Assembly (NCBI GenBank): GCA_020341815.1
Contig: CP070837.1
Coordinates: 135,229-199,228 of the forward strand
Origin: Candidatus Omnitrophota bacterium
GTDB taxonomy: Bacteria; Omnitrophota; Gorgyraeia; JAFGHF01
Length of the DNA stretch: 64,000 nucleotides
Reading direction: 5' to 3'
Made by a program: the position numbers and the translations under genes. The number at the start of each line of letters is the position of its first letter. The first letter of the stretch is position 1. The notes beneath the pieces are model-generated. The model was not told where the DNA came from, did no database searches, and saw only the letters and a list, made by a program, of their open reading frames with translations. Shown one piece after another: positions 1,493-64,000 of the stretch.

Positions 1493-3469
1493 TTGAATTT
1501 GCTTTTTGGTGTGCATAATCATCAGCCGGTAGGTAACTTTGAAAACGTCTTTCAGAAAGCAAATCGGGAGTGTTATCGCCCCTTTGTGGACACCCTCTAT
1601 AACTTCCCCTCCATTAAATGCACTTTCCACTTTAGCGGTTCCCTGATAGATTGGTTATTAAAAAACGACCCCGGTCTCCTTAAGAAAGTCAAAGAGATGC
1701 TTAAGCGTGGACAGGTGGAAATCTTAACAGGCGCATATTATGAGGCGGTTCTGTCCGTTATCCCGCAGAGGGACCGCTTAGGTCAAATTGATATGCTCAG
1801 CGGTTTTATCAAAGATTACTTTGAGTATGAGCCCAAGGGCATATGGCTGGGCGAGAGGGTTTGGGAGCCGCAGCTGGTAAAGACCTTGTGCGAGGCAGGA
1901 GTAAAATATACTATTTTAGATGAAGCGCATTTTCGTCTGGCGGGGATGGATGAGGAAAAAATAAAGGGTTATTATCTTACCGAGGACGAAGGAGAAACTC
2001 TGGCAATATTTCCTATCAACGAAAAATTGAGATATATTGTTCCCTTTTCGCTGCCGAGAGAGCCCATTAGATATTTGAAAAAATTGGCGGATGAAGGCGA
2101 AATTAACGCCTGCACAATAGTGGATGACGGGGAAAAATTCGGTCTTTGGCCCGGCACCCATAAATGGGTTTATAAAGAAAAGTGGCTGGAGAAGTTCTTC
2201 CAGCTCGTTGTAAAAAATCAGGATTGGCTGAAGACAGAGACTATCCATAACTATATGCAGAGAGAAAAACCTCAAGGGTTATTTTATCTTCCCTGTGCCA
2301 GCTATGACAGAATGGTTGTCTGGTCCGGAGGCTTCTTTAGGAATTTCTTTGTGAAATATCCTGAGGCAAATAATCTGCATAAGCGGATGCTTTATGTGAG
2401 CGATAGATTAAAAGATGAAGGCGACAGAGAAATAAAGAAATATCTCTATATGGGGCAATGCAATTGCCCTTACTGGCACGGAGTATTCGGGGGGATATAT
2501 TTGACGCATCTGAGGCACGCTGCTTATAAGAATATTATCACCGCCCAGGCCCTTCTTGAAAAGAAACAGAAGAAGCCTTTTCTGGAGAGCGAGATGTTCG
2601 ATTTTGATAAGGACGGCCATAACGAAATACTTATCAGGAATCCGCTTTTAAATATATTTGTCGCGCCAGCCCGCGGCGGGGCGATTTTCGAGATGGATTA
2701 TTTAGAACGTCCTATTAATCTGATGGATACGATGAGCAGGCGCCCTGAATCATATCATGAAAAAATTAAAACCAGCCTTAAAAAGCGCTTGCACCTGGGA
2801 AAGAAAAAGATTGTCAGTATCCATGATTTGCTAAGAAGCAAAGAAAAGGGCCTGGAGAAGTTTCTGATTTATGATTCCTACAGGCGAGCCTCACTCTTGG
2901 AGCACTTTTTCTATCAGGATTTAAGCTTTGAAGATTTCAGGAATTCGCGCTATGAAGAGCTGGGCGACTTCATCAATGCCCCATATTCCTTCAGACAGAG
3001 AAGAGATAAGGATACGCTTTCGCTAATTTTATCCAGGCGCGGCACCTTAAATTATAAGGGCGAAAGAGTTCTTCTGGGTCTTTCCAAAGAACTCTCTTTA
3101 AATACACAAGAGGCCCAGGTTATGATTAAATATAATCTGGAGAATTTAAGCAACAGGCCTCTAAAGATAATTTTTGCTGTAGAGTTTAATTTTTCAGTAC
3201 AAGGTAAACTTCAGCCCGATAATTTCCCTATTGAAGCAGAGCGGTTAAGCCTGCGCGATGAGGCCGCAGGCATAGAGTGCGCTTTCGGTTTTGATAAAAG
3301 GCCTAAACTCTGGGCGCATCCCTTAGAGACCGTTTCCGCTTCCGAATCAGGGTTTGAACGCAATTACCAGCAGAGGGTCCTCCTGCCTTTCTGGCCCATC
3401 ACGTTGGAAAAAACCTGGCAGACTGATATAAAAATAGCTGTTTCTAATTGCAATTTGGATGATATTTAG
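1493..3469 (+). CDS. Glycoside hydrolase family 57 (4-alpha-glucanotransferase / alpha-amylase-like)
   Basis: N-terminal HNHQP motif, GH57-like length (658 aa) and a TTG start preceded by a GGGGG RBS. Lies near other glycogen genes. Confidence 0.75.
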   Translation: MNLLFGVHNHQPVGNFENVFQKANRECYRPFVDTLYNFPSIKCTFHFSGSLIDWLLKNDPGLLKKVKEMLKRGQVEILTGAYYEAVLSVIPQRDRLGQIDMLSGFIKDYFEYEPKGIWLGERVWEPQLVKTLCEAGVKYTILDEAHFRLAGMDEEKIKGYYLTEDEGETLAIFPINEKLRYIVPFSLPREPIRYLKKLADEGEINACTIVDDGEKFGLWPGTHKWVYKEKWLEKFFQLVVKNQDWLKTETIHNYMQREKPQGLFYLPCASYDRMVVWSGGFFRNFFVKYPEANNLHKRMLYVSDRLKDEGDREIKKYLYMGQCNCPYWHGVFGGIYLTHLRHAAYKNIITAQALLEKKQKKPFLESEMFDFDKDGHNEILIRNPLLNIFVAPARGGAIFEMDYLERPINLMDTMSRRPESYHEKIKTSLKKRLHLGKKKIVSIHDLLRSKEKGLEKFLIYDSYRRASLLEHFFYQDLSFEDFRNSRYEELGDFINAPYSFRQRRDKDTLSLILSRRGTLNYKGERVLLGLSKELSLNTQEAQVMIKYNLENLSNRPLKIIFAVEFNFSVQGKLQPDNFPIEAERLSLRDEAAGIECAFGFDKRPKLWAHPLETVSASESGFERNYQQRVLLPFWPITLEKTWQTDIKIAVSNCNLDDI

Positions 3470-3511
3470 TTATAATCAATGCACGCAGATAGATAAAGAA
3501 GGAGGGGGAAG

Positions 3512-4369
3512 ATGCTCCTGAAGATAAGCGCCTTTTGCAGCATTAACCTGGTCCAGTTTTTATTTATTATTTTAGCCATTTATCTCTCGGGTGTATTAAT
3601 CATCAGGCTGATAAATAGATGGGTAAAGGACGTGCACCATCGCCATACGGGGCGCAAGATTACGCTTTACACGACAGTGCTGGCTATTCTGATAGTTTCT
3701 CTGATATTCTGGCTGGAAAGCGTAAAGCCGGTGGCGGTGATGATAAGTATTGTAGGCGCCGGTCTTGTAGTAGCCTTGCAGGAAGTAATCCTTTGTTTTT
3801 TCGGTTGGATTTTGATAATTTTTAAGCGTCCCTTCAGCGTAGGGGACCGGGTGGAAATTGGCTCGGTTAAAGGAGACGTCATCGATGTACGGATGTTTCA
3901 GACCGCGCTTCTTGAGGTGGGTAACTGGGTTAGCGCTGAGCAGAGCACCGGCAGGGTGGTACATGTTCCCAACAGCAGCGTATTCAGGGAAAGGGTATTT
4001 AACTATACCAAAGGCTTTGCCTTTATCTGGAACGAGGTCAAGGTAACCGTTACTTTTGAGACCAACTGGGCCAAGGCCAAAGAGATTGTTTTGCGCCAGG
4101 CCGGCTCCCAAGCAGATGAACTGAAAGCAAAGGCGCAGACGTCCATTGAAAAAATGGCTCAGCGCTATATGATTCATTATGAGAAATTTACGCCTATTGT
4201 CTATGTAAACATCGTTGATTATGGCGTAGAGCTTACCTTGCGTTATCTGACGCAGGTACGCGAAAGGCGCACGACCGAGGACAGGATATCGCGAGGTATC
4301 CTGGAGGAGTTTAACCGGGAAAAGGATATACAGTTTGCTTATCCTACTTACCGCATTGTAAAAAAATGA
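3512..4369 (+). CDS. mscS: Small-conductance mechanosensitive channel (MscS family)
   Basis: Three N-terminal transmembrane helices and an MscS beta-domain motif (PFSVGDRVEIGSVKGDVIDV). Confidence 0.8.
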   Translation: MLLKISAFCSINLVQFLFIILAIYLSGVLIIRLINRWVKDVHHRHTGRKITLYTTVLAILIVSLIFWLESVKPVAVMISIVGAGLVVALQEVILCFFGWILIIFKRPFSVGDRVEIGSVKGDVIDVRMFQTALLEVGNWVSAEQSTGRVVHVPNSSVFRERVFNYTKGFAFIWNEVKVTVTFETNWAKAKEIVLRQAGSQADELKAKAQTSIEKMAQRYMIHYEKFTPIVYVNIVDYGVELTLRYLTQVRERRTTEDRISRGILEEFNREKDIQFAYPTYRIVKK

Positions 4370-4480
4370 ACCCCGCCCTTCCCAACACTATGCTTTGCAT
4401 AAGAGATATTGGCGAAGGCAATAAAAGGAAGGGTTGGGGATATAACCCTGGCATAGCGATGAAAGGAAGAGCGGGGTGAA
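4366..4480 (+). repeat. IR-flanked intergenic repeat element (RPE/MITE-like), copy 1, subfamily A
   Basis: Left end TGAACCCCGCCCTTCC includes the mscS stop. Right end GGAAGAGCGGGGTGAA includes the SD-like motif and the glgC GTG start. Core is TTGCATAAGAGATATTGGCGAAGGCAATAAAAGG. Confidence 0.8.
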
Positions 4481-5696
4481 TAAGATACTTACATTTATTA
4501 TGGCCGGAGGAAAAGGGGAAAGACTTTTTCCTTTGACCAGGGAAAGAACCAAGCCGGCGACTCCCTTCGGAGGCGTCTATCGAATTATTGATTTTACTTT
4601 AAGCAATTGCATCAATTCGGGCCTACGCAAAGTCTGCGTGCTTACTCAATATAAATCCAGCTCCCTTAATCATCACTTAACTATGGGCTGGAGTATCTTA
4701 AACAGCGAATTGGGTGAGTATATCGATGCTGTTCCGGCCCAGCAGAGAATTAGCGATACCTGGTACTTAGGCACGGCCGATTCTATTTATCAAAATCTTT
4801 ATCTGGTTATCGAAGAGACCCCTGATTATGTCCTTATTCTGGCTGGCGACCATATATATAAGATGGACTATGGCCAGATGCTCCAGTTTCATCGCAAAAG
4901 ACGCGCCGACCTTACGGTTGCAGTTGTGGAGGCTCAAAAGGAAGAGGCTCATCGCTTGGGTATCCTTGAGGTCGACAGGAGGATGCAGGTGCGGGGTTTT
5001 CAGGAAAAACCCAAAGGGCCTGAGGGTATTTTCGGCAGAACAGACTCTGTCTATGCCTCGATGGGGATATATGTTTTTAGCCGGGAAGTCCTGATTGAGG
5101 AACTGGCCGAAGATGCTGCCAGGCAAAACTCTGAACACGACTTTGGGAAAAATATAATTCCCCAGATGGTCGGCAAGCGAAAGAAGATTTTTGCCTATAA
5201 TTTCAAAGACCCCGAAAGCAATACGCCGAAATACTGGAGAGATGTGGGGGATATCGATGCCTATTATGAGGCAAATATGGATTTGGTGCGGGTTACGCCC
5301 GAATTTAATCTCTATGATAAAGAGTGGCCTATTCGTACTTATCAGGAGCAGTTTCCCCCGGCAAAGACCGTCTGGAGCGGCCAGGAAAATAAACGGCGCA
5401 TCGGCCAGGCTATTAATTCTCTGATTGCCAGCGGATGTATTATAAGCGGAGGCTTGGTAAAGAATTCTATCCTTTCTCCTGCGGTGCGCATTAATAGCTT
5501 TGCCGAGGTTTATGATTCCATTATTATGGAAGGCGCAGAAATCGGAAGGTTTGCTAAAATCAAAAGGGCAATCATCGATAAAAATGTCAGGGTTTCTCAA
5601 GATGCGACAATCGGCTACGACCCGATAGAAGACAGAAAGAGATTTACGGTTAGCGAATCAGGAATTACCGTGGTAGGCAAAGGGGCCAGCGTCTAA
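4476..5696 (+). CDS. glgC: Glucose-1-phosphate adenylyltransferase
   Basis: N-terminal MNKILTFIMAGGKGERLFPLT nucleotidyltransferase motif. GTG start lies inside the repeat element. Confidence 0.9.
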   Translation: MNKILTFIMAGGKGERLFPLTRERTKPATPFGGVYRIIDFTLSNCINSGLRKVCVLTQYKSSSLNHHLTMGWSILNSELGEYIDAVPAQQRISDTWYLGTADSIYQNLYLVIEETPDYVLILAGDHIYKMDYGQMLQFHRKRRADLTVAVVEAQKEEAHRLGILEVDRRMQVRGFQEKPKGPEGIFGRTDSVYASMGIYVFSREVLIEELAEDAARQNSEHDFGKNIIPQMVGKRKKIFAYNFKDPESNTPKYWRDVGDIDAYYEANMDLVRVTPEFNLYDKEWPIRTYQEQFPPAKTVWSGQENKRRIGQAINSLIASGCIISGGLVKNSILSPAVRINSFAEVYDSIIMEGAEIGRFAKIKRAIIDKNVRVSQDATIGYDPIEDRKRFTVSESGITVVGKGASV

Positions 5697-6970
5697 TGCG
5701 ATTGAACATTACCGAGAAAATATTGTTAGCGCATACAGATCGAGAAGAGATCTCACCCGGAGAAATTATTGAGGCCCGCGTAGATTTGGCCCTGGGCAAC
5801 GATATTACCGCGCCCCTTGCTATTAAAAAATTCAAGGCCGCAGGCATCAAAAAGGTGTTCAACCGCGAAAGGATTGCTCTTGTCTGCGACCATTTTGTGC
5901 CCAATAAGGACGCTCCCAGCGCCCGTCAGTGCCGGATGGTTGAAGACTTCGCCCGTGATTTTAAGATTAATCATTTTTATCCCCTGGGAGAAGGCGGCAT
6001 TGAGCATGTGCTTTTGCCTGAGGCGGGCCTGGTTCTTCCGGGAGATTTGATTATAGGGGCCGATTCGCACACCTGCACCTACGGCGCCTTAGGGGCCTTT
6101 TCCACAGGAGTGGGCTCAACGGATTTAGCGGCGGTCTGGATTACGGGAAAGATTTGGCTGCGCGTGCCCGAATCGATGAAGTTTATCTATTCCGGAAAAT
6201 TAAGACCCTGGGTAGGCGGCAAAGACCTTATCCTGCACACCATAGGCGATATCGGGGTCTCCGGAGCTACATATAAGGCCATGGAGTTTACCGGGCCTGC
6301 GATTAAACATTTGTCCATGGATGACAGATTCTCGATGTGTAATATGGCTATTGAGGCCGGGGCAAAATCAGGGATAATTGAAGCGGATAAAATAACGCGT
6401 AAATATATTAATTCAGTCGCTAGTCGCTTGTCGCTAGTATCTAGTAAAAGATTTTATAAAAGCGATAGGAACGCCAGGTATTGCGACATGAGGGAATATG
6501 ACGTAAGTAAACTCCAGCCGCAGGTGGCCTGTCCGCATCTGCCCAGCAACGTAAAGCCCGTAGGCGAGCTGAAAAAAGTAAGCATAGACCAGGCGGTAAT
6601 CGGCTCCTGCACCAACGGGCGGATTTCCGATTTGATGACAGCGGCCAGAGTCCTGAAAAACAAAAAGGCTAATTCCCGGGTAAGGTTAATCGTTTTTCCG
6701 GGCACGCAGCAGATTTATCAAGAGGCCCTGAAGATGGGCTTAATGGATATATTTATTGATGCCGGTGCAACTATTTGTCCGCCTACCTGCGGGCCCTGCC
6801 TTGGCGGGCATATGGGCGTTTTAGGTGATAAAGAAGTGGCTATCGCCACCACTAATCGTAATTTCCGCGGTAGAATGGGGGCTTTAACAAGTAAGGTGTA
6901 TTTGTCTAATCCGGCTGTAGCAGCGGCAAGTGCCGTTCATGGCACGATTACGCATCCGGGAGAGAGTTGA
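5696..6970 (+). CDS. leuC: 3-isopropylmalate dehydratase large subunit (archaeal-type LeuC/aconitase family)
   Basis: Aconitase-family Cys ligands (CTNGR, CGPC) at a length of 424 aa. Followed by leuD and leuB. Confidence 0.85.
   Translation: MRLNITEKILLAHTDREEISPGEIIEARVDLALGNDITAPLAIKKFKAAGIKKVFNRERIALVCDHFVPNKDAPSARQCRMVEDFARDFKINHFYPLGEGGIEHVLLPEAGLVLPGDLIIGADSHTCTYGALGAFSTGVGSTDLAAVWITGKIWLRVPESMKFIYSGKLRPWVGGKDLILHTIGDIGVSGATYKAMEFTGPAIKHLSMDDRFSMCNMAIEAGAKSGIIEADKITRKYINSVASRLSLVSSKRFYKSDRNARYCDMREYDVSKLQPQVACPHLPSNVKPVGELKKVSIDQAVIGSCTNGRISDLMTAARVLKNKKANSRVRLIVFPGTQQIYQEALKMGLMDIFIDAGATICPPTCGPCLGGHMGVLGDKEVAIATTNRNFRGRMGALTSKVYLSNPAVAAASAVHGTITHPGES
6414..6446. repeat. Heptamer tandem array inside leuC (AGTCGCT AGTCGCT TGTCGCT AGTATCT AGTA)
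   Basis: The 7-bp periodic repeat is directly visible. About 30 nt nearly match the array at 15675-15712. Confidence 0.6.
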
Positions 6971-12486: not shown

Positions 12487-13506
12487 ATGTTAAAAATTGC
12501 TATAGTAGGGGCAACAGGATATGCAGGTGAGGAATTATTGAAAGTTTTAGTCAATCATCCCCGCCTTAAGATAACCTCTGTCTCGGCGAAGATAGATAAA
12601 CCGCAGAAGATCGATCAAGTCTTTCCTTATCTTAAAGGCAAGTTAGATTTAATCTGTAAAGAGCCGGACTTTTCTCAAATTGTACCTGATTGCGATTTGG
12701 CCTTTCTGGCGCTTCCGCACCGGGTATCTATGGATGTGGCTCCTCAATTTCTGCATGGGGGAAAGAAGGTTATCGACTTAAGCGCAGATTATAGATTAAA
12801 AGAGACTTCTGTCTATGAGAAGTGGTACGCCGCCAAACATAAAGACCCCGAACATCTTAAAGGGGCAGTTTATGGCCTGCCGGAAGTTTACAGAAAAAAA
12901 ATTAAACAGGCCCAGCTTATAGCCAATCCCGGCTGTTATCCTACGGGAATAATTCTGGGCTGCCTGCCTTTTTTGTCGAAGCATGCGGTGTTCACGGAGA
13001 ATATTATCGTTGATGCCAAGACCGGCTTAAGCGGCGCAGGAAGAGAAAAAGAGGCCTTGCTTATTCCCCAGATGCAGGATAATTTCAGGGCCTATAAGGT
13101 TGATGAACATCAGCATTCACCGGAGATAAATCAGGAATTATCCGGCTTTGCCAAAGAAAAAATAGAGATTACCTTTACCCCTCATCTTATTCCTATAAAG
13201 AGGGGAATCTTGAGCACAATTTATTTTCAATTGAAAAATAGAATTTCCCAGGAAGAGGCGCAGAAACTGTATCAGGATTTTTATCAGAATGAGCCGTTCG
13301 TGAAAGTGTTACCGGAAGGAAAGTTTCCTCAGCTTAGGGATGTAGTGAAGACGAATTTCTGCCACATAGGCTTGAAGGTAAACCCGGCCAGAAAAACAGC
13401 TATTGTTATTTCCGCCATAGATAACTTGGTTAAGGGTGCCTCCGGACAGGCGGTACAGAATATGAATATTATGTATGGGTTTGAAGAAACAGAAGGCTTG
13501 AAATGA
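12487..13506 (+). CDS. argC: N-acetyl-gamma-glutamyl-phosphate reductase
   Basis: MLKIAIVGATGYAGEEL and the active-site Cys region (NPGCYPT). Confidence 0.9.
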   Translation: MLKIAIVGATGYAGEELLKVLVNHPRLKITSVSAKIDKPQKIDQVFPYLKGKLDLICKEPDFSQIVPDCDLAFLALPHRVSMDVAPQFLHGGKKVIDLSADYRLKETSVYEKWYAAKHKDPEHLKGAVYGLPEVYRKKIKQAQLIANPGCYPTGIILGCLPFLSKHAVFTENIIVDAKTGLSGAGREKEALLIPQMQDNFRAYKVDEHQHSPEINQELSGFAKEKIEITFTPHLIPIKRGILSTIYFQLKNRISQEEAQKLYQDFYQNEPFVKVLPEGKFPQLRDVVKTNFCHIGLKVNPARKTAIVISAIDNLVKGASGQAVQNMNIMYGFEETEGLK

Positions 13507-13620
13507 ACCCCGCCCTTCCTAAAAAATGCAACTTAAGTATTGCAAAGAAGCGCTGGGGAGCTTTACTTTTGTTAAAAAAATGTATACAGAATAAGGGATG
13601 AAAGGAAGAGCGGGGTGAAG
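13504..13620 (+). repeat. IR-flanked intergenic repeat element, copy 2, subfamily B
   Basis: Left end TGAACCCCGCCCTTCC includes the argC stop. Right end GGAAGAGCGGGGTGAAG includes the argJ GTG start. Confidence 0.8.
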
Positions 13621-14802
13621 ATTATTGAAGGAGGAATAACAGCGCCAAAGGGTTTTACCTCAGGCGGCGTCCATTGCGGCATAAAATACAGAAATAAAGA
13701 CTTGAGCTTGATATATTCAAAAGCTCCTTGTCTGGGGTGTGGGTTGTTCACCCAGAATAAGGTTCAGGCCGCACCTGTTAAGATAACTCGTGCCCATTTA
13801 AAGAATAATAAAGCCCAGGCCATTATTGCCAACAGCGGAAATGCCAATTGTTGCACGGGAGAGCAAGGCCTTAAAGATGCCCGCAGGATATGTAAAGTTG
13901 TGGCCGATAAATTGGGCATAAGTCCGAGCGATGTCCTGGTAGCCTCTACAGGGATTATCGGCAAGAGATTGCCGATGGAGAGAATGGAAAAAGCTATCCC
14001 TGCGCTGCTTGATAGATTAAGCAACGAAAGAAGCCTTGAGGCGGCCCATGCGATTATGACTACGGATACTAAGCCTAAGCAGATATCCGTAGAGCTGAAC
14101 TTGGGAAGTGCTAAGGTGAGAATTGGCGCTATCGCCAAGGGCGCAGGGATGCTCCAGCCTCATTTGGCTACGATGCTCGCCTTTATTAGCACCGATGCGA
14201 AAATAGATAAAACAAGATTACAAAAAGCGCTTAAAGAGGCGGTGGATAATTCCTTCAATCTGATTACTGTAGAGGGCGATACCAGTACCAATGATATGGT
14301 TTTGATGCTGGCTAATGGTTTATCCGGCAATAAAAAGCTTAACGCAAAAGAGTTTATGCTTTTTCAGCAGGCCCTTAATTTTGTCTGCCTTTCCTTGGCT
14401 AAGATGCTTATTAAGGATGCCGAGGGCGCAACCAAATTTGCCCAGATTAAGGTGGAGCAGGCAAAAAATATTACTCAAGCCAAGCAAGTAGCCTTTAAAG
14501 TGGCCAATTCTGCTTTGGTAAAGACTGCCTTATTCGGGTCCAATCCCAACTGGGGCAGGATTGCTGCCGCAGCCGGTTGTGCCGATAGCGCGATCAAGGC
14601 TGATAGACTGGATATTTATCTGGATGGGCTAAAGGTATTGCAAAAAGGCGTTGTCTCGAAAGTGGACCGCCAGAGATTAAATGAAAGCTTCAAAAAAGAC
14701 GAAATAGAGATAAAAATTAATTTAGGATTAGGCAAATCTGCAACACGTGTTTTTACATGCGACCTGTCCGGGAAATATGTCAAGATCAATGCCAGGTATT
14801 AA
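13615..14802 (+). CDS. argJ: Bifunctional glutamate N-acetyltransferase / ornithine acetyltransferase
   Basis: GITAPKGF, ATMLAFISTDA and the T-autocleavage region. GTG start. Confidence 0.9.
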   Translation: MKIIEGGITAPKGFTSGGVHCGIKYRNKDLSLIYSKAPCLGCGLFTQNKVQAAPVKITRAHLKNNKAQAIIANSGNANCCTGEQGLKDARRICKVVADKLGISPSDVLVASTGIIGKRLPMERMEKAIPALLDRLSNERSLEAAHAIMTTDTKPKQISVELNLGSAKVRIGAIAKGAGMLQPHLATMLAFISTDAKIDKTRLQKALKEAVDNSFNLITVEGDTSTNDMVLMLANGLSGNKKLNAKEFMLFQQALNFVCLSLAKMLIKDAEGATKFAQIKVEQAKNITQAKQVAFKVANSALVKTALFGSNPNWGRIAAAAGCADSAIKADRLDIYLDGLKVLQKGVVSKVDRQRLNESFKKDEIEIKINLGLGKSATRVFTCDLSGKYVKINARY

Positions 14803-15678: not shown

Positions 15679-15812
15679 TCGCTCGTCGCTCGTATCTGGT
15701 ATCTAGTAAGAAGTAAGACAGAAACAATAAAATTTTTTAAATATTTAGAAATTACACAAAAAGTTTTTAATAACTAGATACAAGATACTGGATACTAGAT
15801 ACTAGTAAAAAT
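15675..15812. repeat. Inverted arrays of GTATCTNG/GTCGCT heptamer repeats flanking an AT-rich core (argB-argD intergenic)
   Basis: Left arm is TAGTCGCTCGTCGCTCGTATCTGGTATCTAGTAAGAAGTAAG. Right arm is CTAGATACAAGATACTGGATACTAGATACTAGTAA, the reverse complement of tandem GTATCTNG units. About 60 bp of AT-rich sequence lies between them. Confidence 0.6.
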
Positions 15813-17001: not shown

Positions 17002-17922
17002 ATGAAGAGAGACTTTCTTTCCATTAAGGATTTGCAGTTAGAAGAGATTGAGCATATCTTTAGCCTGACCGATGAGCTCAAGGCGAAGGTCAAGGACCAT
17101 AGCCGCAGTTTATCGGGTAAGTCCCTGGGGCTCATCTTTCTCAAGCCTTCTTTAAGGACAAGGGTATCTTTTGAAGTGGGGATGAACCAGTTAGGGGGTT
17201 ACGCCCTTTCCCTGGCGGCGGAAGATATAAAGTTTGGCACCAGAGAAGCGGCTAAAGATTTCGGTAAAGTTCTTTCGCGATATTTAGATGCCTTGGTGGT
17301 AAGGACCTTTTCTCATAGCGAAGTTGAGGAGCTGGCAGACTCATCCGATATTCCCGTAATCAACGGCTTAACGGATTTACTGCACCCTTGCCAGGCATTA
17401 AGCGACCTTTATACCATTAAAGAGAAAAAAGGTAATTTAGACGATATTAAGCTTGCCTTTATAGGTGACGGAAATAATGTAGCCCATTCTTTGCTTTACG
17501 GATGCGCTAAATTAGGAGTAAACTTAAAGATAGCTACTCCCTCCAAACATAAACCTGATGAGGAAATCTTTAATCATGCAAAGGAACTGGCCAAATCATC
17601 CGGAGTGGAAATAATTTTGTCGGATAAGCCCTCCAGCGCGGCAGCCAATGCCGATGTAATATATACCGATGTCTGGGCAAGTATGGGCCAGGAGAGAGAA
17701 TATAAGAAAAAAGTTAAAGATTTTAAAGGATTTCAGGTAAATCAGGAGCTTCTTTCTTTGGCAAAACCAGATTGTCTGGTGATGCATTGCCTGCCGGCGC
17801 ACAGAGGCGAAGAGATAACCGATGAGGTACTTGACGGGGCCCATTCCATAGTATTTGACCAGGCAGAGAACAGGATGCACCTGCAGAAGGCAATATTATT
17901 GATGTTGTTAGGAGGATATTGA
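17002..17922 (+). CDS. argF: Ornithine carbamoyltransferase
   Basis: STRTR and HCLPA motifs. Confidence 0.9.
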   Translation: MKRDFLSIKDLQLEEIEHIFSLTDELKAKVKDHSRSLSGKSLGLIFLKPSLRTRVSFEVGMNQLGGYALSLAAEDIKFGTREAAKDFGKVLSRYLDALVVRTFSHSEVEELADSSDIPVINGLTDLLHPCQALSDLYTIKEKKGNLDDIKLAFIGDGNNVAHSLLYGCAKLGVNLKIATPSKHKPDEEIFNHAKELAKSSGVEIILSDKPSSAAANADVIYTDVWASMGQEREYKKKVKDFKGFQVNQELLSLAKPDCLVMHCLPAHRGEEITDEVLDGAHSIVFDQAENRMHLQKAILLMLLGGY

Positions 17923-18043
17923 TGAACCCCGTTACTCCCAAGCACCACGCCTTGCATAATAGATATGGGCGAAGCTAATAAAAAGGAATAGCGGGGATAA
18001 AGATTTGGCATTAGGATGAGATGAAAGGAGTAACGGGGTGAAA
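17923..18043 (+). repeat. IR-flanked intergenic repeat element, copy 3, subfamily A, with compensatory arm changes
   Basis: Left end TGAACCCCGTTACTCC and right end GGAGTAACGGGGTGAA, including the argG GTG start. The arms differ from the other copies but remain mutually complementary. Confidence 0.8.
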
Positions 18044-30212: not shown

Positions 30213-30482
30213 ATGGCACAAAAAGTAATGAAATGCGGCGTCACTAGGAAGAAGGGCTATCTTTACTACCTTGATAAGAACGGTAACGTCGCCGAGGCAA
30301 AGATGGCCCGGGGCAGAAAAAGAGGTGGTGGCTCCAAGGTGGTCGTCAAATGCGGCATCAAGAGGAAAAAGGGTTATCTCTACTTCATTGACAAAAAAGG
30401 CGATGTCTCTATGGCCAAAATGGTTCGCGGCGGCCGCAAGAGAAAGAAGAAAAAGGCAACAAGAAGAAGGAGAAGAAGGTAG
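30213..30482 (+). CDS. Small extremely basic protein with internal tandem duplication and poly-Arg tail
   Basis: Two ~35-aa repeats: KCG(V/I)xRKKGYLY(Y/F)(L/I)DKxGxVxxAKMxRGxRKR. C-terminus is KKKKATRRRRRR. A GGGAGGTG RBS lies 9 nt before the ATG at 30213. Confidence 0.6.
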   Translation: MAQKVMKCGVTRKKGYLYYLDKNGNVAEAKMARGRKRGGGSKVVVKCGIKRKKGYLYFIDKKGDVSMAKMVRGGRKRKKKKATRRRRRR

Positions 30483-30588: not shown

Positions 30589-33463
30589 GATGCCTAAGGA
30601 ATATATTATTATAAGAGGTGCCAAAGAGCACAACCTCAAAAGTATCAACCTCAAAATTCCCCGCGACAAATTAGTGGTCGTGACCGGCTTAAGCGGTTCG
30701 GGAAAATCTTCTCTTGCCTTTGATACTATTTATGCCGAAGGACAGAGAAGGTATGTAGAGAGCCTCTCCAGTTACGCCCGCCAGTTCTTAGAGCAGTTAC
30801 AGAAACCTGATGTAGAGCATATCGAAGGTATTTCTCCGGCAATCTCTATTGAACAGAGGCCCGCAGGCAGTAATCCGCGCTCTACGGTAGGCACTCAGAC
30901 CGAAATCTACGATTACCTGCGTCTTTTATTTGCCCGTGTAGGCAGGGCCCATTGCTATAAATGCGGCCGGGAGATTTCTCGCCAGAGCCCACAACATATC
31001 GTAGAGCAGATTCTCAAATTACCTGCCGAAAGCAATATTATGCTTCTGGCCCCTTGCATCCGGGGGCGTAAAGGTGAATTTCGTCAGGTCTTTAGCGACA
31101 TTCGCAAACAGGGTTTTGTGCGCGTACGGGTGGATAATAAAGTCTACGACATAGACGAAATAAACCCCGCCCTTCTTAAAAACCCTACGTCAAAGAATAT
31201 GTATAGATTGAGCGACAAAAAGAAGGGCGGGGTGAAATTAGATAAAAAAAGAGCTCATAGTATCGAAGCGGTAGTGGATAGGCTCAAGGTTAACCCTCTT
31301 GAGAAATCAAGGCTTACGGATTCGGTGGAGACTGCCTTAAAAGCAGGAGGAGGAATAGTAATTGTTTCCAGACTCATCAAAAAAGGGCGTTGGCAGGATA
31401 TGCTCTTCAGTGAAGATTATGCCTGCGTTGATTGCGGCATAAGTTTTGCTGAGCTGCAACCACGCGATTTTTCCTTTAACAGCCCTTATGGAGCATGCAG
31501 CGCCTGTAATGGGCTGGGCACCAAGATTGAGGTGGATCCGGATCTTTTAGTGCCGGATAAAAACCGCTCGCTTTCCGAAGGCGCACTTGAGCCTTGGAGA
31601 AAAGGAGGCAGGGGTTATATCCTATATTATCGAGGGCTGATAAGGGAATTGGCCAGACAAATGGGCTTCAGTATAGATATCCCTTTTAAAAAACTAAATA
31701 AAAATGTGCGCAAGGCGATTTTTTACGGATGCGACGAATATGTCTGGGGCAAGCCGTTTGAAGGGGTGATTCCCCACCTGGAGCGTCTTTTCCGGGAGAC
31801 CGAGAGCGAGTATTTAAAATCCGAAATCAATAACTTTATGAGTATCTTGCCTTGTCCTGTCTGCGACGGGGCGCGCCTGAAAAAAGAAAGTCTGGCCGTA
31901 ACCATCAATAATAAAAGCATATGGGATGTGGTCAGAATGTCTATTAGCCGGCTCAAAGGTTTTTTCGAAGAGTTGGATCTTACTCCCGCAGAAAGCATAA
32001 TTGCCCATCAGGCCCTCAAGGGCATTAAGGAAAGATGCAGATTTATGCTCAATGTGGGGCTGGACTATCTGACTTTAGAGAGGGCCGCCGGTACTCTTTC
32101 CGGAGGCGAGGCTCAACGCATTCGCCTGGCCACACAGGTGGGGGCGGGGCTAGTGGGTGTGGTTTATATACTGGATGAGCCCAGTATCGGCCTGCACCAG
32201 AGGGATAACAGGAAGCTTCTGAACACGCTTTGCGCTCTTCGGGACCTGGGAAACAGCTTGATTGTCGTAGAGCATGATGAGGCCACTATAAGGTCTGCAG
32301 ATTATATTATCGATCTGGGGCCCGGGGCAGGCCGTCATGGCGGAAAGGTTGTAGCCTGCGGAAGCTTTAAGAGTTTATTAAGGTCGCGCGAGTCTTTAAC
32401 CGCCAGATATCTGCGCGGGCAGCTTAAAATAGAAGTGCCCAAGGCAAGGAGAAAGATAAATGCCAAGGCCCTGCAGGTCTGGGGTGCACGCGAACACAAT
32501 CTAAAAAATATAAATGTGCGTATCCCCCTGGGGTTATTTGTCTGCGTCAGCGGCGTATCCGGCTCAGGCAAAAGCACGCTTGTGGATGAGATTCTTTACC
32601 GGGGCCTGGCAAAGAAGCTCTACCGCCATAAAGAAAGGCCCGGGGCACATGACAAAATTACCGGAGCGGAATTTATAGATAAGGTGATTGTGGTGGATCA
32701 GTCTCCCATTGGCCGCACGCCCCGCTCTAATCCGGCTACCTATTCAGGGGTTTTTACTCATATCCGTGAGCTTTTCTCTAGACTTCCGGAGTCGCGTATG
32801 GCAGGATATAAGCCGGGCAGGTTCAGCTTTAATCTTAAAGGCGGAAGGTGCGAAGACTGCCAGGGCGAGGGGATAAAAAGGATAGAGATGCACTTTCTTC
32901 CCGATGTTTATGTTAGCTGTGAGACTTGTCGGGGCTTAAGGTTCAACGAGCAGACCTTGGGAATAAAATATAAGGGAAAATCTATTGCCGATGTTTTGAA
33001 TATGACAACGGAAGATGCCTTGAACTTATTTAAGAATATCCCCAGAATCAGAGAGAAGCTGGCAATTCTTAATGATGTGGGCCTGGGGTATATTCAGCTG
33101 GGTCAGTCGGCAACTACCCTCTCAGGAGGCGAGGCCCAGAGACTGAAGCTTTCTGCGGAATTAGGCAAGAGGGCTACCGGCAAGACGCTCTATATACTGG
33201 ATGAGCCCACAACGGGATTGCATTTTGCGGATATAGATAAGTTACTCGCTGTTTTACAGAGATTGGTTGATATGGGTAATACAGTGCTTGTGATCGAGCA
33301 CAATTTGGAGGTGCTTAAAAGCGCCGATTATATTATTGATTTGGGGCCTGAAGCAGGAGAGTCCGGAGGCCGCATTGTTGGCTGCGGTACACCGGAAGAA
33401 CTGGCCAGGATTGAAAGTTCCTTCACCGGTAAATATTTGAAAAAGATTTTGATGAGATGCTAA
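30589..33463 (+). CDS. uvrA: Excinuclease ABC subunit A, carrying an in-frame repeat-element insertion
   Basis: Two ABC ATPase modules ([20 protein letters not shown]), zinc fingers and signature motifs. Start taken at the ATG at 30589 after the promoter. Confidence 0.9.
31160..31237 (+). repeat. IR-flanked repeat element, copy 4, subfamily B, inserted in-frame inside uvrA
   Basis: TAAACCCCGCCCTTCT ... GAAGGGCGGGGTGAA, translated as [27 protein letters not shown] within UvrA. Confidence 0.75.
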
Positions 33464-37642: not shown

Positions 37643-37712
37643 TTAAGTAGGCGTAGTAGATATATTACAACACTGCGGTCATTAGAACTGTTAAACAGAA
37701 AGGTAGGTGAGT

Positions 37713-38081
37713 ATGATGGTTACCTTTGGAGAATTCTTTAAACAGAAAAGAATTTCTTTAGGTAAGACATTAAGGCAGTTCTGCTTAGAGAATCAACTGG
37801 ACCCTGGCAATATCAGCAAGATAGAAAGAGGGAAATTACCTCCGCCTGCTTCAGAGGAAAAATTGAAAGAGTATGCTAAATATTTAAATATCCAATTTGG
37901 CAGTGAAGAATGGCAAACATTTAAAGATTTAGCTTCTCTTAGCGCCGGTAAGATACCCGATGATTTAAAGAATGAGCAGGAATTGCTTGCAAGACTTCCT
38001 GTATTCTTTAGGACATTAAGAGATAAAAAATTCTCGGAAGAAGATTTGAAGGAGCTGATTAAAAAAATCAGAGAATCATGA
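37713..38081 (+). CDS. XRE-family helix-turn-helix transcriptional regulator
   Basis: HTH_XRE signature (LRQFCLENQLDPGNISKIERGK). Confidence 0.75.
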   Translation: MMVTFGEFFKQKRISLGKTLRQFCLENQLDPGNISKIERGKLPPPASEEKLKEYAKYLNIQFGSEEWQTFKDLASLSAGKIPDDLKNEQELLARLPVFFRTLRDKKFSEEDLKELIKKIRES

Positions 38082-38084
38082 TAG

Positions 38085-38717
38085 ATGGAACTCCAGCCAA
38101 TATTTAAAACTAAAGAGCAAATAAATTCTGAAGCAGAAAGTTTTTTAAAAAAGTACCATCCATCCAAAGCTATCCCTATCCCAATAGAACAAATAATAGA
38201 TATACAATTACAAATCGATATTATTTCAATTCCTGGCTTAAAAGATGCCTCTGAAACATTAGACCATGATATAGATGCATTTATTTCTTCAGATTTCAGA
38301 AGTATTTCCGTAGATAAGTATATTTATGATAAAGTTGCTACCCGATATAGATTTACTTTAGCGCATGAAATTGGGCATATGATACTTCACGAATATTTAT
38401 ATGCACAATTTAAATTTAATAAAATGGATGAATTTATTACAACCATTAACGAGATGCCATTGAAGGAACGGGGAATGGTTGAATGGCAAGCCGATGAATT
38501 TGCCGGTTTAATTCTTGTGCCTCGAGAATTTCTGGAAGAGAAATTTAAAAAAGCGCTAACAAGAGCTGAAGAAGTACTCAATACATCTTTTAAGGATAGT
38601 CCGGATTTTGTAATAGATGTGGCAATTGCCTATCTTGCACAAGACTTTGCTGTAAGTGCAGATGTAGCAAGAATACGGCTCGAAAGAGATGGTTTAAAGG
38701 AAAAACAGCTTCAATAA
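38085..38717 (+). CDS. ImmA/IrrE-family zinc metallopeptidase (COG2856)
   Basis: HEIGH zinc motif (LAHEIGHMILHEY) and the downstream WQADEFAGLILVP motif. Starts 3 nt after the XRE gene. Confidence 0.8.
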   Translation: MELQPIFKTKEQINSEAESFLKKYHPSKAIPIPIEQIIDIQLQIDIISIPGLKDASETLDHDIDAFISSDFRSISVDKYIYDKVATRYRFTLAHEIGHMILHEYLYAQFKFNKMDEFITTINEMPLKERGMVEWQADEFAGLILVPREFLEEKFKKALTRAEEVLNTSFKDSPDFVIDVAIAYLAQDFAVSADVARIRLERDGLKEKQLQ

Positions 38718-38886: not shown

Positions 38887-41526
38887 ATGAATAAAAAAGT
38901 ATTGCTTATTGACGGTAACTCCTTTTGTTATCGTGCCTTTTACGCCATCAGAAGCCTTTCCACATCAAAAGGTCAGCCCACCAATGCGGTTTACGGTTTT
39001 GTGGCTATGCTGAATAAGCTTATCACGCAGCAAAAGCCCGATTATCTGGCAGTAGCCTTTGACCTTAAAGGGCCTACTTTTCGCCACAAGAAATTTGCCG
39101 ATTACAAAGTTCAGCGCAAGCCTATGCCGGATGATTTAAGCGTTCAATTGCCTGTGATTAAAAGGGTTCTTCATGCCTATCGTATTCCCATATTTGAGAA
39201 AAAGGGCTATGAGGCCGATGATGTTATCGCTACTTTAGCCAAGAGATTAAGCCAGACGAAAGCAGAGATATTGATAGTTACGGGAGATAAAGATATATTG
39301 CAGTTGGTTAGCAGTAATATCAAGGTAATCAATCCGCACAAAGACGATTTAGTTTTAGATGAGGGTTGGGTGAAGAAGAGGTTTGGTGTTGCGCCCGATA
39401 AAATTACCGAGATTATGGCTTTGGCAGGAGATGCCAGCGATAATATTCCCGGCGTTCCCGGCATAGGTGAGGCCACTGCCGTAGAACTGATTAAGCAGTT
39501 CGGCACACTTGATGAGGTATTAGCCAATACGGATAAGATAAAAAATAAGGCCAGGGCCGAAAAGATAAAGGAGTTTGCAAGCCTTGCCCAGATGAGCAGG
39601 GAGCTTACCCGACTGGACAGCGACATTACTCACCTGGCCGAAACCGAGCCAGGCCAGCTGCTCGGACAATTGAAAATAGTCGAGGCGGATAAAAAGGAGT
39701 TGTTTGAGATCTTTAAGGAGCTTGAGTTTAAATCCTTAATGGAGAAGGCCGCAGAAGAATTTAAGGATGAGACAGGTTATAAAGTTATTTCCGATACTAA
39801 AGAAATAGAGGAATATTTTAAAAAGCTTGCGAAAAAAGATACCATAACCTTTTATCCCGCAGGCGGGCGGCCTGACCCTGTGACGGCCAAAATATCAGGC
39901 ATTGCTTTTACTTTCGAGAGAACGAAGCCGGCGTTTTTTTCTTTCGCAGATATTTCCAAAGACGCCCTGAAGCTTATTCTGGAGAATAAAAATATAAAGA
40001 AAATCGGGCACAATTTAAAATACGCAAAAGTGCTTTTCTCCAATTACGGAATTACCTTGGAAGGTATGAGTTTCGATACGATGATTGCCGCATATCTCTT
40101 AGACCCGGCAAAACTGAAATACGGCCTGGGTGATTTAGCTTTAGAATATCTTAATTGCAAATTGGGAGATTTGCCTGATGCGGGCCTGTCTCGCCCTCAG
40201 GCGGACACAGAAAACGAGGCGGCAGAACTTGCCTGCCAGAATGTAACTATAATTTTTAGATTGAGCAAAACCTTAAAAGAAAAGCTGAAAGAAAAGAGTC
40301 TTTTGAGTTTATTTGAGAATATCGAGATGCCCCTTGCGGGAGTCTTGGCGGATATGGAAAGAGAAGGGGTTACGCTGGATAAGAAATTATTGCTTGAGCT
40401 CTCCGGAGATTTTGAGAAGAAACTGAATAGTTTAACCAGAGAGATTTATGAGATGGCCGGCGGCAGCTTCAATATCAATTCACCCAAGCAACTGAGTTCT
40501 GTTTTGTTTGATAAGCTGAAACTGCCCAGAATAAAGCGGACAAAGACAGGAAGCTCAACAGACACAGAAGTCCTGCGTAAGCTCACCAGCGTTCATCCTC
40601 TGGCCCAGCGGCTTCTGGAGTTTAGAGAGATATCCAAGCTAAAGTCCACTTATGTAGAGGGGATGATGAAGCTGTTAAAGTCTTCCTCGTCAGGAAAAAT
40701 TCACACCTCTTTCAATCAAACAGGCACCGCAACCGGCAGGCTTTCTTCAAGCCAGCCCAATTTACAAAATATCCCTATACGCACCGCTTTAGGGAGAAAG
40801 ATTCGCCGGGTTTTTGTTCCTTCGGCAGGCGACAGTTTTCTTTTATCGGCAGACTATTCGCAAATAGAATTAAGGATACTTGCCCATCTTTCGGAAGATA
40901 AAGGCTTGATTTCGGCATTTAAAGAAGACTTGGATATCCATGCCTATACGGCATCTTTAATTTTTAATGTAAGCGTTGATAAAGTATCCCGCCAGATGAG
41001 GAGCGCTGCCAAGACGGTTAATTTCGGAATTATTTACGGAATGGGCGCTTACGCCCTATCCAAGGATTTGGGCATAAAACAGGCCCAGGCAGAGGAGTTC
41101 ATCGAGGCCTATTTCCAGAGGTATCCCGGGGTGAGGAATTATGTCAAGCGCCAGACAGAAAAGGCCGCAAAAGACGGCTTTGTGACCACGCTTATGAAGC
41201 GCCGGCGCTACATCCCACAAATCCAGAGCCCTGATGAAAGCATGCGCCGCTTTGCCCAGCGCATGGCCATAAACGCGCCCGTGCAGGGCTCTGCCAGCGA
41301 TTTAATCAAGGCAGCAATGGTAAATATTCACAATGCCCTGATAAAACAAGGGCATCGGGCGAAGATGATTATCCAGGTTCACGATGAGCTGGTATTTTCC
41401 CTGCCCGAGGAGGAATTGGAGGCGCTCTCTTTGCTTGTTAAGGACAAAATGGAAAATGTAATAAAACTGAAAGTTCCGATTAAGGTTTCAATCAAAAGCG
41501 GAAAGAACTGGCTGGAGGTAAAATGA
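38887..41526 (+). CDS. polA: DNA polymerase I
   Basis: 5'-3' exonuclease N-terminus and family A polymerase motifs A, B and C (DYSQIELR, RRSAKTVNFGIIYG, QVHDEL). Confidence 0.9.
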   Translation: MNKKVLLIDGNSFCYRAFYAIRSLSTSKGQPTNAVYGFVAMLNKLITQQKPDYLAVAFDLKGPTFRHKKFADYKVQRKPMPDDLSVQLPVIKRVLHAYRIPIFEKKGYEADDVIATLAKRLSQTKAEILIVTGDKDILQLVSSNIKVINPHKDDLVLDEGWVKKRFGVAPDKITEIMALAGDASDNIPGVPGIGEATAVELIKQFGTLDEVLANTDKIKNKARAEKIKEFASLAQMSRELTRLDSDITHLAETEPGQLLGQLKIVEADKKELFEIFKELEFKSLMEKAAEEFKDETGYKVISDTKEIEEYFKKLAKKDTITFYPAGGRPDPVTAKISGIAFTFERTKPAFFSFADISKDALKLILENKNIKKIGHNLKYAKVLFSNYGITLEGMSFDTMIAAYLLDPAKLKYGLGDLALEYLNCKLGDLPDAGLSRPQADTENEAAELACQNVTIIFRLSKTLKEKLKEKSLLSLFENIEMPLAGVLADMEREGVTLDKKLLLELSGDFEKKLNSLTREIYEMAGGSFNINSPKQLSSVLFDKLKLPRIKRTKTGSSTDTEVLRKLTSVHPLAQRLLEFREISKLKSTYVEGMMKLLKSSSSGKIHTSFNQTGTATGRLSSSQPNLQNIPIRTALGRKIRRVFVPSAGDSFLLSADYSQIELRILAHLSEDKGLISAFKEDLDIHAYTASLIFNVSVDKVSRQMRSAAKTVNFGIIYGMGAYALSKDLGIKQAQAEEFIEAYFQRYPGVRNYVKRQTEKAAKDGFVTTLMKRRRYIPQIQSPDESMRRFAQRMAINAPVQGSASDLIKAAMVNIHNALIKQGHRAKMIIQVHDELVFSLPEEELEALSLLVKDKMENVIKLKVPIKVSIKSGKNWLEVK

Positions 41527-41599
41527 ACCCCGCCCTTCCAAATACCACGCCTTGCATAAAAGATATGTGCGGAAGCAATAGAAAGAAGGGCGGGGTGAA
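41524..41599 (+). repeat. IR-flanked intergenic repeat element, copy 5 (short form), subfamily A
   Basis: Left end TGAACCCCGCCCTTCC includes the polA stop. Right end GAAGGGCGGGGTGAAA includes the glgA GTG start. The element frame is open and in frame with glgA. Confidence 0.8.
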
Positions 41600-44850: not shown

Positions 44851-44940
44851 ACACTGAGAGCACTGAGAAAAATCTGAAACCTCTGAGAGTCAATTCAGTG
44901 GTTTCAGTGTAATAATTTCAGTGATTTCAGTGATAAAAAA
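44851..44940. repeat. CACTGAG / TTCAGTG repeat-rich imperfect inverted repeat in the rho-rpmE intergenic region
   Basis: CACTGAGA x2 and CTCTGAGAG on the left, TTCAGTG x4 on the right. The halves are reverse complements. Confidence 0.55.
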
Positions 44941-44949
44941 GGAGATAAA

Positions 44950-50813: not shown

Positions 50814-50853
50814 TGCGAAAGAACGGTTCAGTGATAAAAAAGGAGGTGGGAAA

Positions 50854-63932: not shown

Positions 63933-64000
63933 TTCTGGTGAGGCTCGCCGAATTACTGTATAATAATCTGGCGGCCCACCAGTAATTCTGGTGAGGCTCG
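63911..64000. repeat. Tandem ~55-bp duplication overlapping the thi4 3' end, truncated by window edge
   Basis: AATCTGGCGGCCCACCAGTAATTCTGGTGAGGCTCG occurs at 63911-63946 and 63966-64000. It contains the hairpin CACCAG-TAATT-CTGGTG. Confidence 0.6.

Follow-up and report, generated by a model that had tools for sequence, protein, structure and literature searches.

A stretch of 64,000 nt from a Candidatus Omnitrophota bacterium (contig CP070837.1, positions 135,229 to 199,228, hereafter called the window) carries five copies of a short inverted-repeat element, and comparison with related genomes reveals that this element inserts at R-TGAA, in almost all cases where a gene starts with ATGAA, and rebuilds the start codon of the gene that it has entered, a conclusion of which we are practically certain. 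The copies belong to a family of small (~70-125 nt), non-autonomous, hairpin-forming mobile elements that is widespread in Candidatus Omnitrophota. The hairpin is predicted to mask the rebuilt start codon, and we give about even chances to the proposal that this start is unmasked by ribosomes; the account as a whole, comprising insertion, target, start rebuilding and ribosome-gated unmasking, we regard as probable.

Empty sites in relatives and duplication of the target

The arg operons of four relatives, L186, L187, L188 and L189, whose ArgJ proteins are respectively 89, 73, 67 and 65% identical to that of the window, were compared with the junctions that are filled in the window. Between argC and argJ, the window reads ...GGCTTGAAATGAA[CCCC..GGGG]TGAAGATTATTGAAGG whereas L186 is empty (...GGTCTAAAATGAAGATTATCGAAGG); L187 and L189 are likewise empty, and L188 is filled at the same point. 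Between argF and argG, the window has AGGAGGATATTGATGAA, then the element (CCCCGTTACTCC..GGAGTAACGGGG), then TGAAAAAGGTAATT, where L186 reads AGGAGGATATTGATGAAAAAGGTAGTT and is empty, as is L189. Here again L188 is filled, at the identical position, with an interior of subfamily B as against subfamily A in the window. The argF/argG spacer of L187 (6522-6632) is occupied by 111 nt of unrelated sequence that contains an inverted repeat of its own (GGAACTGGTTCC ... GGAACCTGTTCC) and no element. Finally, the empty site at the polA/glgA junction, which had been predicted beforehand as ...ATGAAAGT..., was found in all four relatives available for this locus (L190-L193) as a plain ATGA overlap, reading CTGGAGATGAAATGAAAGTTTTATTCTGC in L191.

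At each of these junctions the empty sequence ...ATGAA... corresponds to ...ATGAA[CCCC...GGGG]TGAA... in the window, with exact boundaries and with the TGAA duplicated. Such precise empty sites in relatives demonstrate that the element is an insertion and not a conserved leader. They prove the RPE/MITE-like (miniature inverted-repeat transposable element) nature that the initial annotation had proposed for these repeats, and they contradict the view, which it had set against this proposal, that orthologous junctions would carry the same sequence as an ordinary leader.

The extent of the duplication was determined from a flank-free pattern (CCCCGCCCTTC N40-70 GAAGRGCGGGG), which returned 105 loci when applied to one genome per species. 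Although the flanks were not part of the search pattern, the great majority of the elements lie between ATGAA and TGAA. The pairs of flanking tetranucleotides were TGAA/TGAA (56), TAAA/TAAA (6), TGAG/TGAG (5), TGGA/TGGA (1) and TGCG/TGCG (1), and the left and right flanks agreed at positions 1 to 4 in 75, 73, 76 and 70 of 76 elements, respectively. Position -5 is A in 60 and G in 15, and no wider target consensus was apparent. The duplication is thus TGAA, 4 nt long; a length of 3 nt is also compatible.

This mode of insertion explains how the start codon is rebuilt. The last G of the element and the duplicated TG form a new GTG, so that the second codon of the protein is unchanged, and this GTG is preceded by a Shine-Dalgarno (SD) sequence borne by the element (AGAAAGGAAG), in line with the initial annotation, which had placed an SD and part of the GTG in the right end. 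The ancestral ATG (hereafter the leftover ATG), together with any TGA stop that overlaps it, is kept at the left edge; the stop codon therefore comes from the target and not from the element. The idea that the element ends supply the stop of the upstream gene does not hold, this stop being a pre-existing ATGA (or TGATG) overlap that was retained and duplicated. Similarly, the first TGA of the element had been read as the upstream stop in all four intergenic copies, which is correct for mscS, argC and polA; the stop of argF is the TGA at 17920-17922, outside the element, and the TGA at the element edge (17923-17925) is a second in-frame stop. The terminal GTG was confirmed as the start of argJ, argG and glgA, as orthologues of the three proteins begin at the same residue (ArgJ, ATG-AAG-ATT; ArgG, ATG-AAA-AAG; GlgA, ATG-AAA-GTT) and the NCBI call for GlgA (453 aa) agrees with the GTG start.

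One of the five copies, copy 4, lies in frame within uvrA, where it adds 24 codons, a fact missed when the family was first noticed. Solved UvrA structures pass directly from residue 210 to residue 212 where the window UvrA has its 24 extra residues, and 20 other Omnitrophota UvrAs show a clean gap at this position at the protein level, in a comparison set of mostly partial proteins of at most 60% identity and without close relatives. A second in-frame coding insert was found in a 6-phosphofructokinase gene (L083, - strand, 4204-4265), in which 22 residues (PRPSYKKRKGKFWVKQEEERGE) are read in a frame different from that of the uvrA copy. Copies that fall in frame in coding sequence and contain no stop codon thus survive as peptide inserts. 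Three Omnitrophota UvrAs (P0124, P0164 and P0170) carry unrelated long inserts ~70 residues downstream of the window insert site (alignment columns ~278-322), which may be other translated repeats.

The element load is uneven among relatives, with 5 copies per 64 kb in the window, 2 per 21 kb in L188 and none in ~74 kb from six other relatives, the DNA of all of which was fetched without reference to the element. In addition, short-read contigs of the same organism break at the copies, inside copy 1 for example. A metagenome scan with ArgJ returned relatives of at most 50% identity only, none of which had the element.

Anatomy of the window copies

All five copies described in the initial annotation were present, and an independent repeat search of the window returned the same five (as families D1-D3). 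They are 78-122 nt long, lie on the + strand and end in the complementary arms CCCCGCCCTTCC and GGAAGRGCGGGG; their parts are listed in Table 1, in which the exact cores (CCCC...GGGG) are those delimited by a generalised hairpin search. Four copies are located at gene starts, between genes whose products were assigned with Pfam as an MscS-type channel and GlgC, ArgC and ArgJ, OTCase (ArgF) and ArgG, and PolA and GlgA. All intergenic copies open with ATGAACCCC, an ATG overlapping a TGA. Each copy is bracketed by a direct repeat, TGAA...TGAA, which is TAAA...TGAA in copy 4; the initial annotation had recorded neither the overlapping ATG nor this duplication. Repeat search and alignment recovered the two subfamilies recognised at the outset, A (copies 1, 3 and 5) and B (copies 2 and 4). 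The short copies 4 and 5 have no inner right arm (R1), and alignment of copy 4 with the long subfamily-B copies leaves a 40-nt internal gap.

No extra or decayed copies were found in the 64-kb window beyond these five. The 13-mer arm by itself, searched with up to three mismatches, matched 21 window sites for 20.6 expected, which is the level of chance; matches with 0-2 mismatches coincide with the paired arms of copies 1, 2, 4 and 5 and with nothing else, the variant arms of copy 3 falling outside this range.

Table 1. Coordinates of the element copies and of their parts in the window. L, left arm; R1, inner right arm; R2, terminal right arm.
Feature	Position	Strand	Remarks
Copy 1	4366..4480	+	Subfamily A, long form; mscS/glgC junction
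Copy 1 edges	leftover ATG 4366-4368; left TGAA 4367-4370; core 4371-4476; right TGAA 4477-4480		TGA of left TGAA is the mscS stop
Copy 1 L	4371..4382	+	CCCCGCCCTTCC, anti-SD-like
Copy 1 R1	4427..4439	+	GGAAGGGTTGGGG, degenerate; possible decoy partner of L
Copy 1 R2 and start	4465..4478	+	GGAAGAGCGGGG at 4465-4476; carries SD, GAAA before it
glgC GTG start	4476-4478	+	Last G of the element and duplicated TG
Copy 2	13503..13619	+	Subfamily B, long form; argC/argJ junction; empty site in L186, L187, L189
Copy 2 edges	ATG 13503-13505; left TGAA 13504-13507; core 13508-13615; right TGAA 13616-13619		TGA of left TGAA is the argC stop
Copy 2 inner parts	R1 ~13547-13558; R2 13604-13615; GTG 13615-13617
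Copy 3	17922..18042	+	Subfamily A interior, variant arms CCCCGTTACTCC/GGAGTAACGGGG; argF/argG junction; empty site in L186, L189
Copy 3 edges	ATG 17922-17924; left TGAA 17923-17926; core 17927-18038; right TGAA 18039-18042
Copy 3 inner parts	R1 17985-17996; R2 18027-18038; GTG 18038-18040
Copy 4	31160..31236	+	Subfamily B, short form; in uvrA, 24 extra residues in frame
Copy 4 edges	left TAAA 31161-31164; core 31165-31232; right TGAA 31233-31236		ATG decayed to ATA
Copy 4 GTG	31232-31234	+	Val codon here
Copy 5	41523..41599	+	Subfamily A, short form; polA/glgA junction; empty site in L190-L193
Copy 5 edges	ATG 41523-41525; left TGAA 41524-41527; core 41528-41595; right TGAA 41596-41599		TGA of left TGAA is the polA stop
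Copy 5 GTG	41595-41597	+

Distribution and association with gene starts

Among the low-GC loci returned by the flank-free search, canonical copies occurred in 24 species-level assemblies, 20 of which are labelled Omnitrophota or Omnitrophica and the rest 'bacterium', Planctomycetia or Elusimicrobiota. High-GC matches to the pattern were unrelated hairpins and were rejected as family members. In total, ~88 copies were present in 537 kb of related loci.

The constant association of the element is with gene starts, where 52 of the 56 elements flanked by TGAA/TGAA are found: 23 at stop/start junctions and 29 without an upstream open reading frame (ORF) ending there. The term 'intergenic connector' used in the initial annotation accordingly describes a subset only, since 23 of 52 gene-start copies abut an upstream stop; as for the family having been 'co-opted' for such a role, the pattern would be explained just as well if harmless insertions had simply survived. 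The right-end GTG opens a long ORF in ~48 of 50 copies. In the window, 4 of ~14 ATGAA sites at gene starts are occupied, compared with 1 of 34 in-frame internal sites, 0 of 67 out-of-frame internal sites and 0 of 8 sites outside long + strand ORFs, a distribution that fits sequence-targeted insertion filtered by selection. In-frame coding copies are in the minority (1 of 5 in the window, 2 of ~76 overall).

Tandem copies separated by exactly TGAA were observed in L086 (- strand, 3275-3561), where three copies precede a 424-codon ORF. This array suggests re-insertion into the GTGAA made by an earlier copy, and the G at position -5 mostly marks a new copy on the GTGAA of a previous one.

A sister class of short simple hairpins with CCCCG/CGGGG tips and TAAA/TAAA flanks, usually preceded by G, was noted in L023, L046, L049, L072, L075 and L099. 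These hairpins sit in spacers or just past stop codons, not at gene starts.

Arms and predicted RNA folding

The typical order of parts is ATGAA, L (CCCCGCCCTTCC, usually followed by TAAA), a variable loop, the degenerate R1, a spacer, the terminal R2 (AGAAAGGAAGRGCGGGG) and TGAA. What variant subfamilies retain is limited to the tips, CCCC(G)/(C)GGGG, and to arm complementarity. Other arm pairs, namely CCCCGTTAGAAA/TTTCTAACGGGG, CCCCGCACCTTC/GAAGGTGCGGGG and CCCCACCACCTCC/GGAGGTGGTGGGG, occur in elements that share the flanks and the L-R1-R2 layout and are likewise followed by a long ORF. Selection on nothing but the 4-nt tips and the gene context gave 60 copies, of which 58 had seven or more of 8 inner positions paired; four non-consensus arms formed 7-8 of 8 pairs when matched with their own partner and a mean of 4.0 when matched with the arms of other copies. 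The variant arms of copy 3 had been considered as a case of compensatory evolution in place; this reading is weakened by the presence of CCCCGTTA-type arms in other genomes, where they form a separate subfamily, and the arms of copy 3 are better read as belonging to such a subfamily.

In the minimum free energy (MFE) folds, L is paired with R2 in all five window copies and, across the family, in 51 of 60, with a median of about -30 kcal/mol. The pairing of the two arms across the element, anticipated by the initial annotation, is thus recovered by folding, and the predicted L:R2 helix would bury the GGAAG together with the initial G of the GTG. An R1-like inner segment, complementary to L at 10 or more of 12 positions, is present in 29 of 60 copies and an L-like inner segment in 7 of 60; the internal polarity L-R1-R2 is fixed relative to the gene.

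Several other identities for the hairpin were discarded. It is not an intrinsic terminator, as the right arm is followed by TGAATAAG, TGAAGATT, TGAAAAAG, TGAAATTA and TGAAAGTC, with no T-run, and the gene starts there. Readings as a SECIS-like UGA-plus-hairpin, as an attC-like site or as an IS91 end (GAAC target) were also dropped: the flanking genes encode separate proteins, no U-run is present and the C that follows GAA is part of the element rather than of the target. No Rfam family matched the window at gathering thresholds, and a permissive scan of copy 1 gave chance-level matches only.

Proposed ribosome-gated unmasking of the new start

We propose that in the mRNA the left arm would pair with the terminal right arm and mask both the SD and the first base of the GTG. 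A ribosome that terminates 1 nt short of L, at the upstream TGA, would unwind L and leave R2 free, and so would a ribosome that starts at the leftover ATG and reads Met-Asn-Pro-Ala-Leu-Pro (AAC-CCC-GCC-CTT-CCx) through L. Melting of the helix would then expose the new start (RNA-unfolding coupling), and termination-reinitiation of the kind proposed for MIRUs might operate in those copies, 20 of 65, in which the leftover-ATG ORF ends exactly at GTGA. If so, the original initiation signals of the gene would still set its output and the insertion would be nearly neutral.

The leftover ATG is kept in 60 of 76 copies. The ORF that it opens is uninterrupted in 20 of 29 copies with the GTGA phase and in 9 of 36 copies with the other phases (Fisher p = 5e-4, the copies not being independent). 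In copy 1, this ORF is 37 codons long, with the TGA of GTGA as its stop. In five copies, including copy 5, it is in frame with the gene and might provide an N-terminal extension, of 24 aa on GlgA in the case of copy 5. Copies 3 and 5 preserve intact the ancestral SD before the leftover ATG, and this SD matches the empty sites. A conserved small peptide (MNPALP...) as the functional unit was rejected because frame-shifting indels separate the copies and all three phases occur.

It should be noted that the element misleads gene callers. ArgJ of L188 (10001-11299) was called with 432 aa, 37 of which are a false extension; a 31-aa phantom ORF was called within the argF/argG copy of the same relative (14313-14408); and GlgA of the window (41523-42956) was listed with 477 aa, from the leftover ATG.

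Weighing the proposed account against its alternatives

A number of points speak against the proposed account. As regards coupling, we infer it from geometry and predicted folding; in 36 of 65 copies the ORF opened by the leftover ATG falls short of the GTG by 13-102 nt, and an obvious SD precedes the leftover ATG in only 20 of 50. The 12-bp G+C-rich helix might simply depress translation, or it might be opened by 30S subunits that bind the unpaired AGAAA upstream of the arm. As regards mobilisation, no transposase was found among the 19 window ORFs scanned, and the parent element was represented neither by a gene-sized version in the 537 kb of related loci nor by a match to viral contigs. The fixed L-R1-R2 polarity is also unexpected from a symmetric cut-and-paste transposase and needs either selection or an oriented mechanism. 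As regards the counts, the 105 loci were chosen with consensus arms, which biases the arm statistics towards the consensus, and copy counts across genomes are not phylogenetically independent.

The alternative that best withstands the data is that the element is mobile but translationally inert, its hairpin serving transposition only and the gene being translated from the SD and GTG or from an in-frame leftover ATG. The reading frame through the element is not conserved, transposition could by itself maintain the complementarity of the arms, at many copies the TGA does not coincide with the end of an upstream gene, and both a common C.A mismatch variant and the unpaired AGAAA beside the arm would weaken occlusion, all of which such inert DNA would accommodate. 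It would account less readily for MFE optima in which, for 51 of 60 copies, the SD and the first base of the GTG are buried, for the retention of the leftover ATG and the excess of open frames in the GTGA-overlap phase, and for the polarity of the arms, which suggests selection at the RNA level. We hold this alternative to be a serious but minority possibility.

A different question is which enzyme moves the element. Terminal inverted repeats with a target-site duplication (TSD) of 3-4 nt are typical of DDE transposases, and the presence of both suggests that a DDE transposase acts on a MITE. A single-strand enzyme of the HUH/Y1 class (IS200/IS605-like or RAYT-like) would instead insert in an oriented manner 3' of a tetranucleotide and excise seamlessly, the right TGAA then belonging to the element itself. 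The canonical copies all have one orientation relative to the non-palindromic TGAA, the left TGAA is where such an enzyme would require it, what is conserved across subfamilies is hairpin complementarity rather than arm sequence, and the closest relatives are cleanly empty while a more distant one is filled, as seamless excision would produce. Against this stand the covarying left and right tetranucleotides, which duplication explains directly and guide recognition would explain only through matched changes in the element, the single long end-to-end hairpin in place of separate subterminal left and right hairpins, and the lack of a Y1 gene among the window ORFs scanned. Subfamily-B copies show 78% similarity between different sites compared with 70% at the same site in two genomes; similarity does not follow position, a result that speaks weakly for several separate insertion events and against common descent followed by exact loss. 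Mobilisation by an HUH/Y1 enzyme is rated as unlikely, though worth keeping in mind beside the DDE transposase.

Still less probable is that the family is a co-opted global regulatory device in which a trans-acting RNA-binding protein or small RNA reads the arms and tunes ~100 genes. Such a factor would be consistent with an arm sequence that hardly varies among at least 24 species, in contrast to the diverging interiors, and with copies at housekeeping biosynthetic and repair genes; yet recognition by a transposase predicts arm conservation equally well, the closest relatives lack the element at the same genes, subfamilies with variant arms coexist, and neither an Rfam match nor a candidate factor was identified. 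Lastly, an immobile cis-regulatory leader or connector, inherited vertically and having evolved in situ at every junction, to which the strong conservation of the arms and of their position relative to the start codon across many species and the hiding of the SD and GTG might point, is refuted by the precise empty sites that the closest relatives show at three of the junctions and is further contradicted by the same element at unrelated genes and inside two coding sequences, by different subfamilies at the same site in different genomes, by tandem arrays and by the patchy load among relatives, so that we give it next to no credence.

Other repeats and neighbouring genes in the window

The argB/argD spacer (15679-15812, 134 nt) contains a different inverted-repeat element (GTCGCTCGTCGCTCGTATCTGGTATCTAGTAA ... 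CTAGATACAAGATACTGGATACTAGATACTAGTAA), a partial left end of which is also found at 6415-6447 within the ORF 5696-6970; in the relative with 89% identity, L186, the argB/argD junction is 6 nt only. At the end of the window (63907-64000), a 41-nt unit (ATAGTAATCTGGCGGCCCACCAGTAATTCTGGTGAGGCTCG) recurs with a period of 53 nt and continues past the window end, and a short-read contig of the same organism (L194) stops there. A 19-nt motif (TTCAGTGATAAAAAAGGAG, repeat family D12) is identical at two sites and nearly so at a third (44926-44944, 50827-50845 and 30384-30402); one of the identical sites is 8 nt upstream of the ATG at 50854. Directly upstream of polA (37707-38717) are an HTH_3 (XRE-type) gene and a Peptidase_M78 (ImmA/IrrE-like) gene.

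Comparison with known repeats and coupling systems

The initial annotation knew of no named equivalent of this stop/start arrangement. Related systems exist, namely MIRUs (PMC12548453) and REP2 (PMC3184786), at least as these two sources present them. MIRUs are described in PMC12548453, which cites Supply et al. 1997, as mobile repeats that enter genes at the start codon and whose internal ORF is coupled at -4 nt, with minimal effect on the gene. The Omnitrophota element resembles them in being a short, apparently mobile repeat on start codons (52 of 56 TGAA-flanked copies, the empty sites being ATG starts) and in the GTGA (-4 nt) geometry of the 20 copies mentioned above. This overlap is not a defining feature here, since it occurs in those 20 of 65 copies only, the ORF ending earlier in another 36. 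MIRUs are direct or tandem repeats of high-GC Actinobacteria, without terminal inverted repeats or a long hairpin, and the phase of their ORF is their defining feature. By contrast, the Omnitrophota element occurs in all three phases, has inverted-repeat ends of 12-14 bp, a TGAA duplication and its own SD, changes ATG to GTG and rarely forms tandem arrays.

The Correia-type MITEs of Neisseria are presented in PMC3184786 as small non-coding elements with terminal inverted repeats and a short TSD that are co-transcribed with their neighbours. With a length of 78-122 nt in the window, no conserved reading frame, terminal inverted repeats of 12-14 bp, a short TSD and many dispersed copies that are polymorphic for presence or absence, the Omnitrophota element has the features of a MITE. 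It differs in its insertion at start codons in a fixed orientation, in the rebuilding of the start codon, in supplying an SD and in having arm subfamilies that keep their complementarity. RPEs (Ogata et al. 2000), according to the same source (PMC3184786), are palindromic repeats fused in frame inside protein-coding genes, as are several other repeat families. A minority of the Omnitrophota copies, those in uvrA (24 aa) and in the phosphofructokinase gene (22 aa), are palindromic repeats of this in-frame type, whereas most are at gene starts; moreover, the two families belong to different phyla and are not known to be related in sequence.

The closest parallels for a repeat that carries translation signals are REP2 of Neisseria and IR-A/IR-B of Borrelia, which in the account of PMC3184786 lie directly upstream of genes, carry a ribosome-binding site and start codon and have internal stem-loops. 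REP2 differs in having no terminal inverted repeats and in carrying a promoter as well, and neither a TSD nor replacement of a start codon is described for it in that account, whereas the Omnitrophota start codon is a chimera of the element G and the duplicated TG. REP sequences are extragenic, mostly 3' of genes, with a GTAG/CGTC tag and no TSD, as outlined in PMC3733652. They and the REPIN-RAYT systems have in common with the Omnitrophota element G+C-rich palindromic repeats, a high copy number and a conserved hairpin, but the Omnitrophota copies are at start codons with a TGAA duplication and no RAYT was seen among the window ORFs scanned.

Structure-gated coupling is itself well known: in E. 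coli rpmI-rplT, in the coat-lysis genes of phage MS2 and in genes VII-IX of phage f1, a helix masks the downstream ribosome-binding site and is opened by the upstream ribosome, as reviewed in PMC12548453. The predicted geometry of the Omnitrophota element would be of the same kind. The known cases are unique and locus-specific, whereas the Omnitrophota module is portable and stands before many unrelated genes. No description of this family was found in the literature on Omnitrophota and repeats or start codons. As far as established, its distinctive combination is that of an end-to-end inverted-repeat hairpin, a TGAA duplication that rebuilds a GTG, an SD located in, and predicted to be masked by, the arms, and phylum-wide spread.

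Implications

The family provides a natural example of a selfish repeat that colonises the start codon and ribosome-binding site, the most sensitive nucleotides of a gene, without killing the gene. The same ~70-nt module before many genes, with natural arm variants and with empty sites as controls, constitutes a testbed for RNA unfolding versus reinitiation in translational coupling. The annotation of Omnitrophota and related metagenome-assembled genomes is directly affected, through newly created GTG starts, false N-terminal extensions, small phantom ORFs and breaks in contigs. The target also points to a mobilisation system with specificity at the level of the start codon. In its most ambitious form, which we put forward tentatively and think less likely true than false, the family would be a start-codon-homing mobile module that acts as a portable, ribosome-gated ribosome-binding site, with oriented recognition of ATGAA, possibly by a new enzyme. 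If the module is indeed ribosome-gated, it may impose strict translational coupling on ~100 genes in heavily colonised Omnitrophota genomes.

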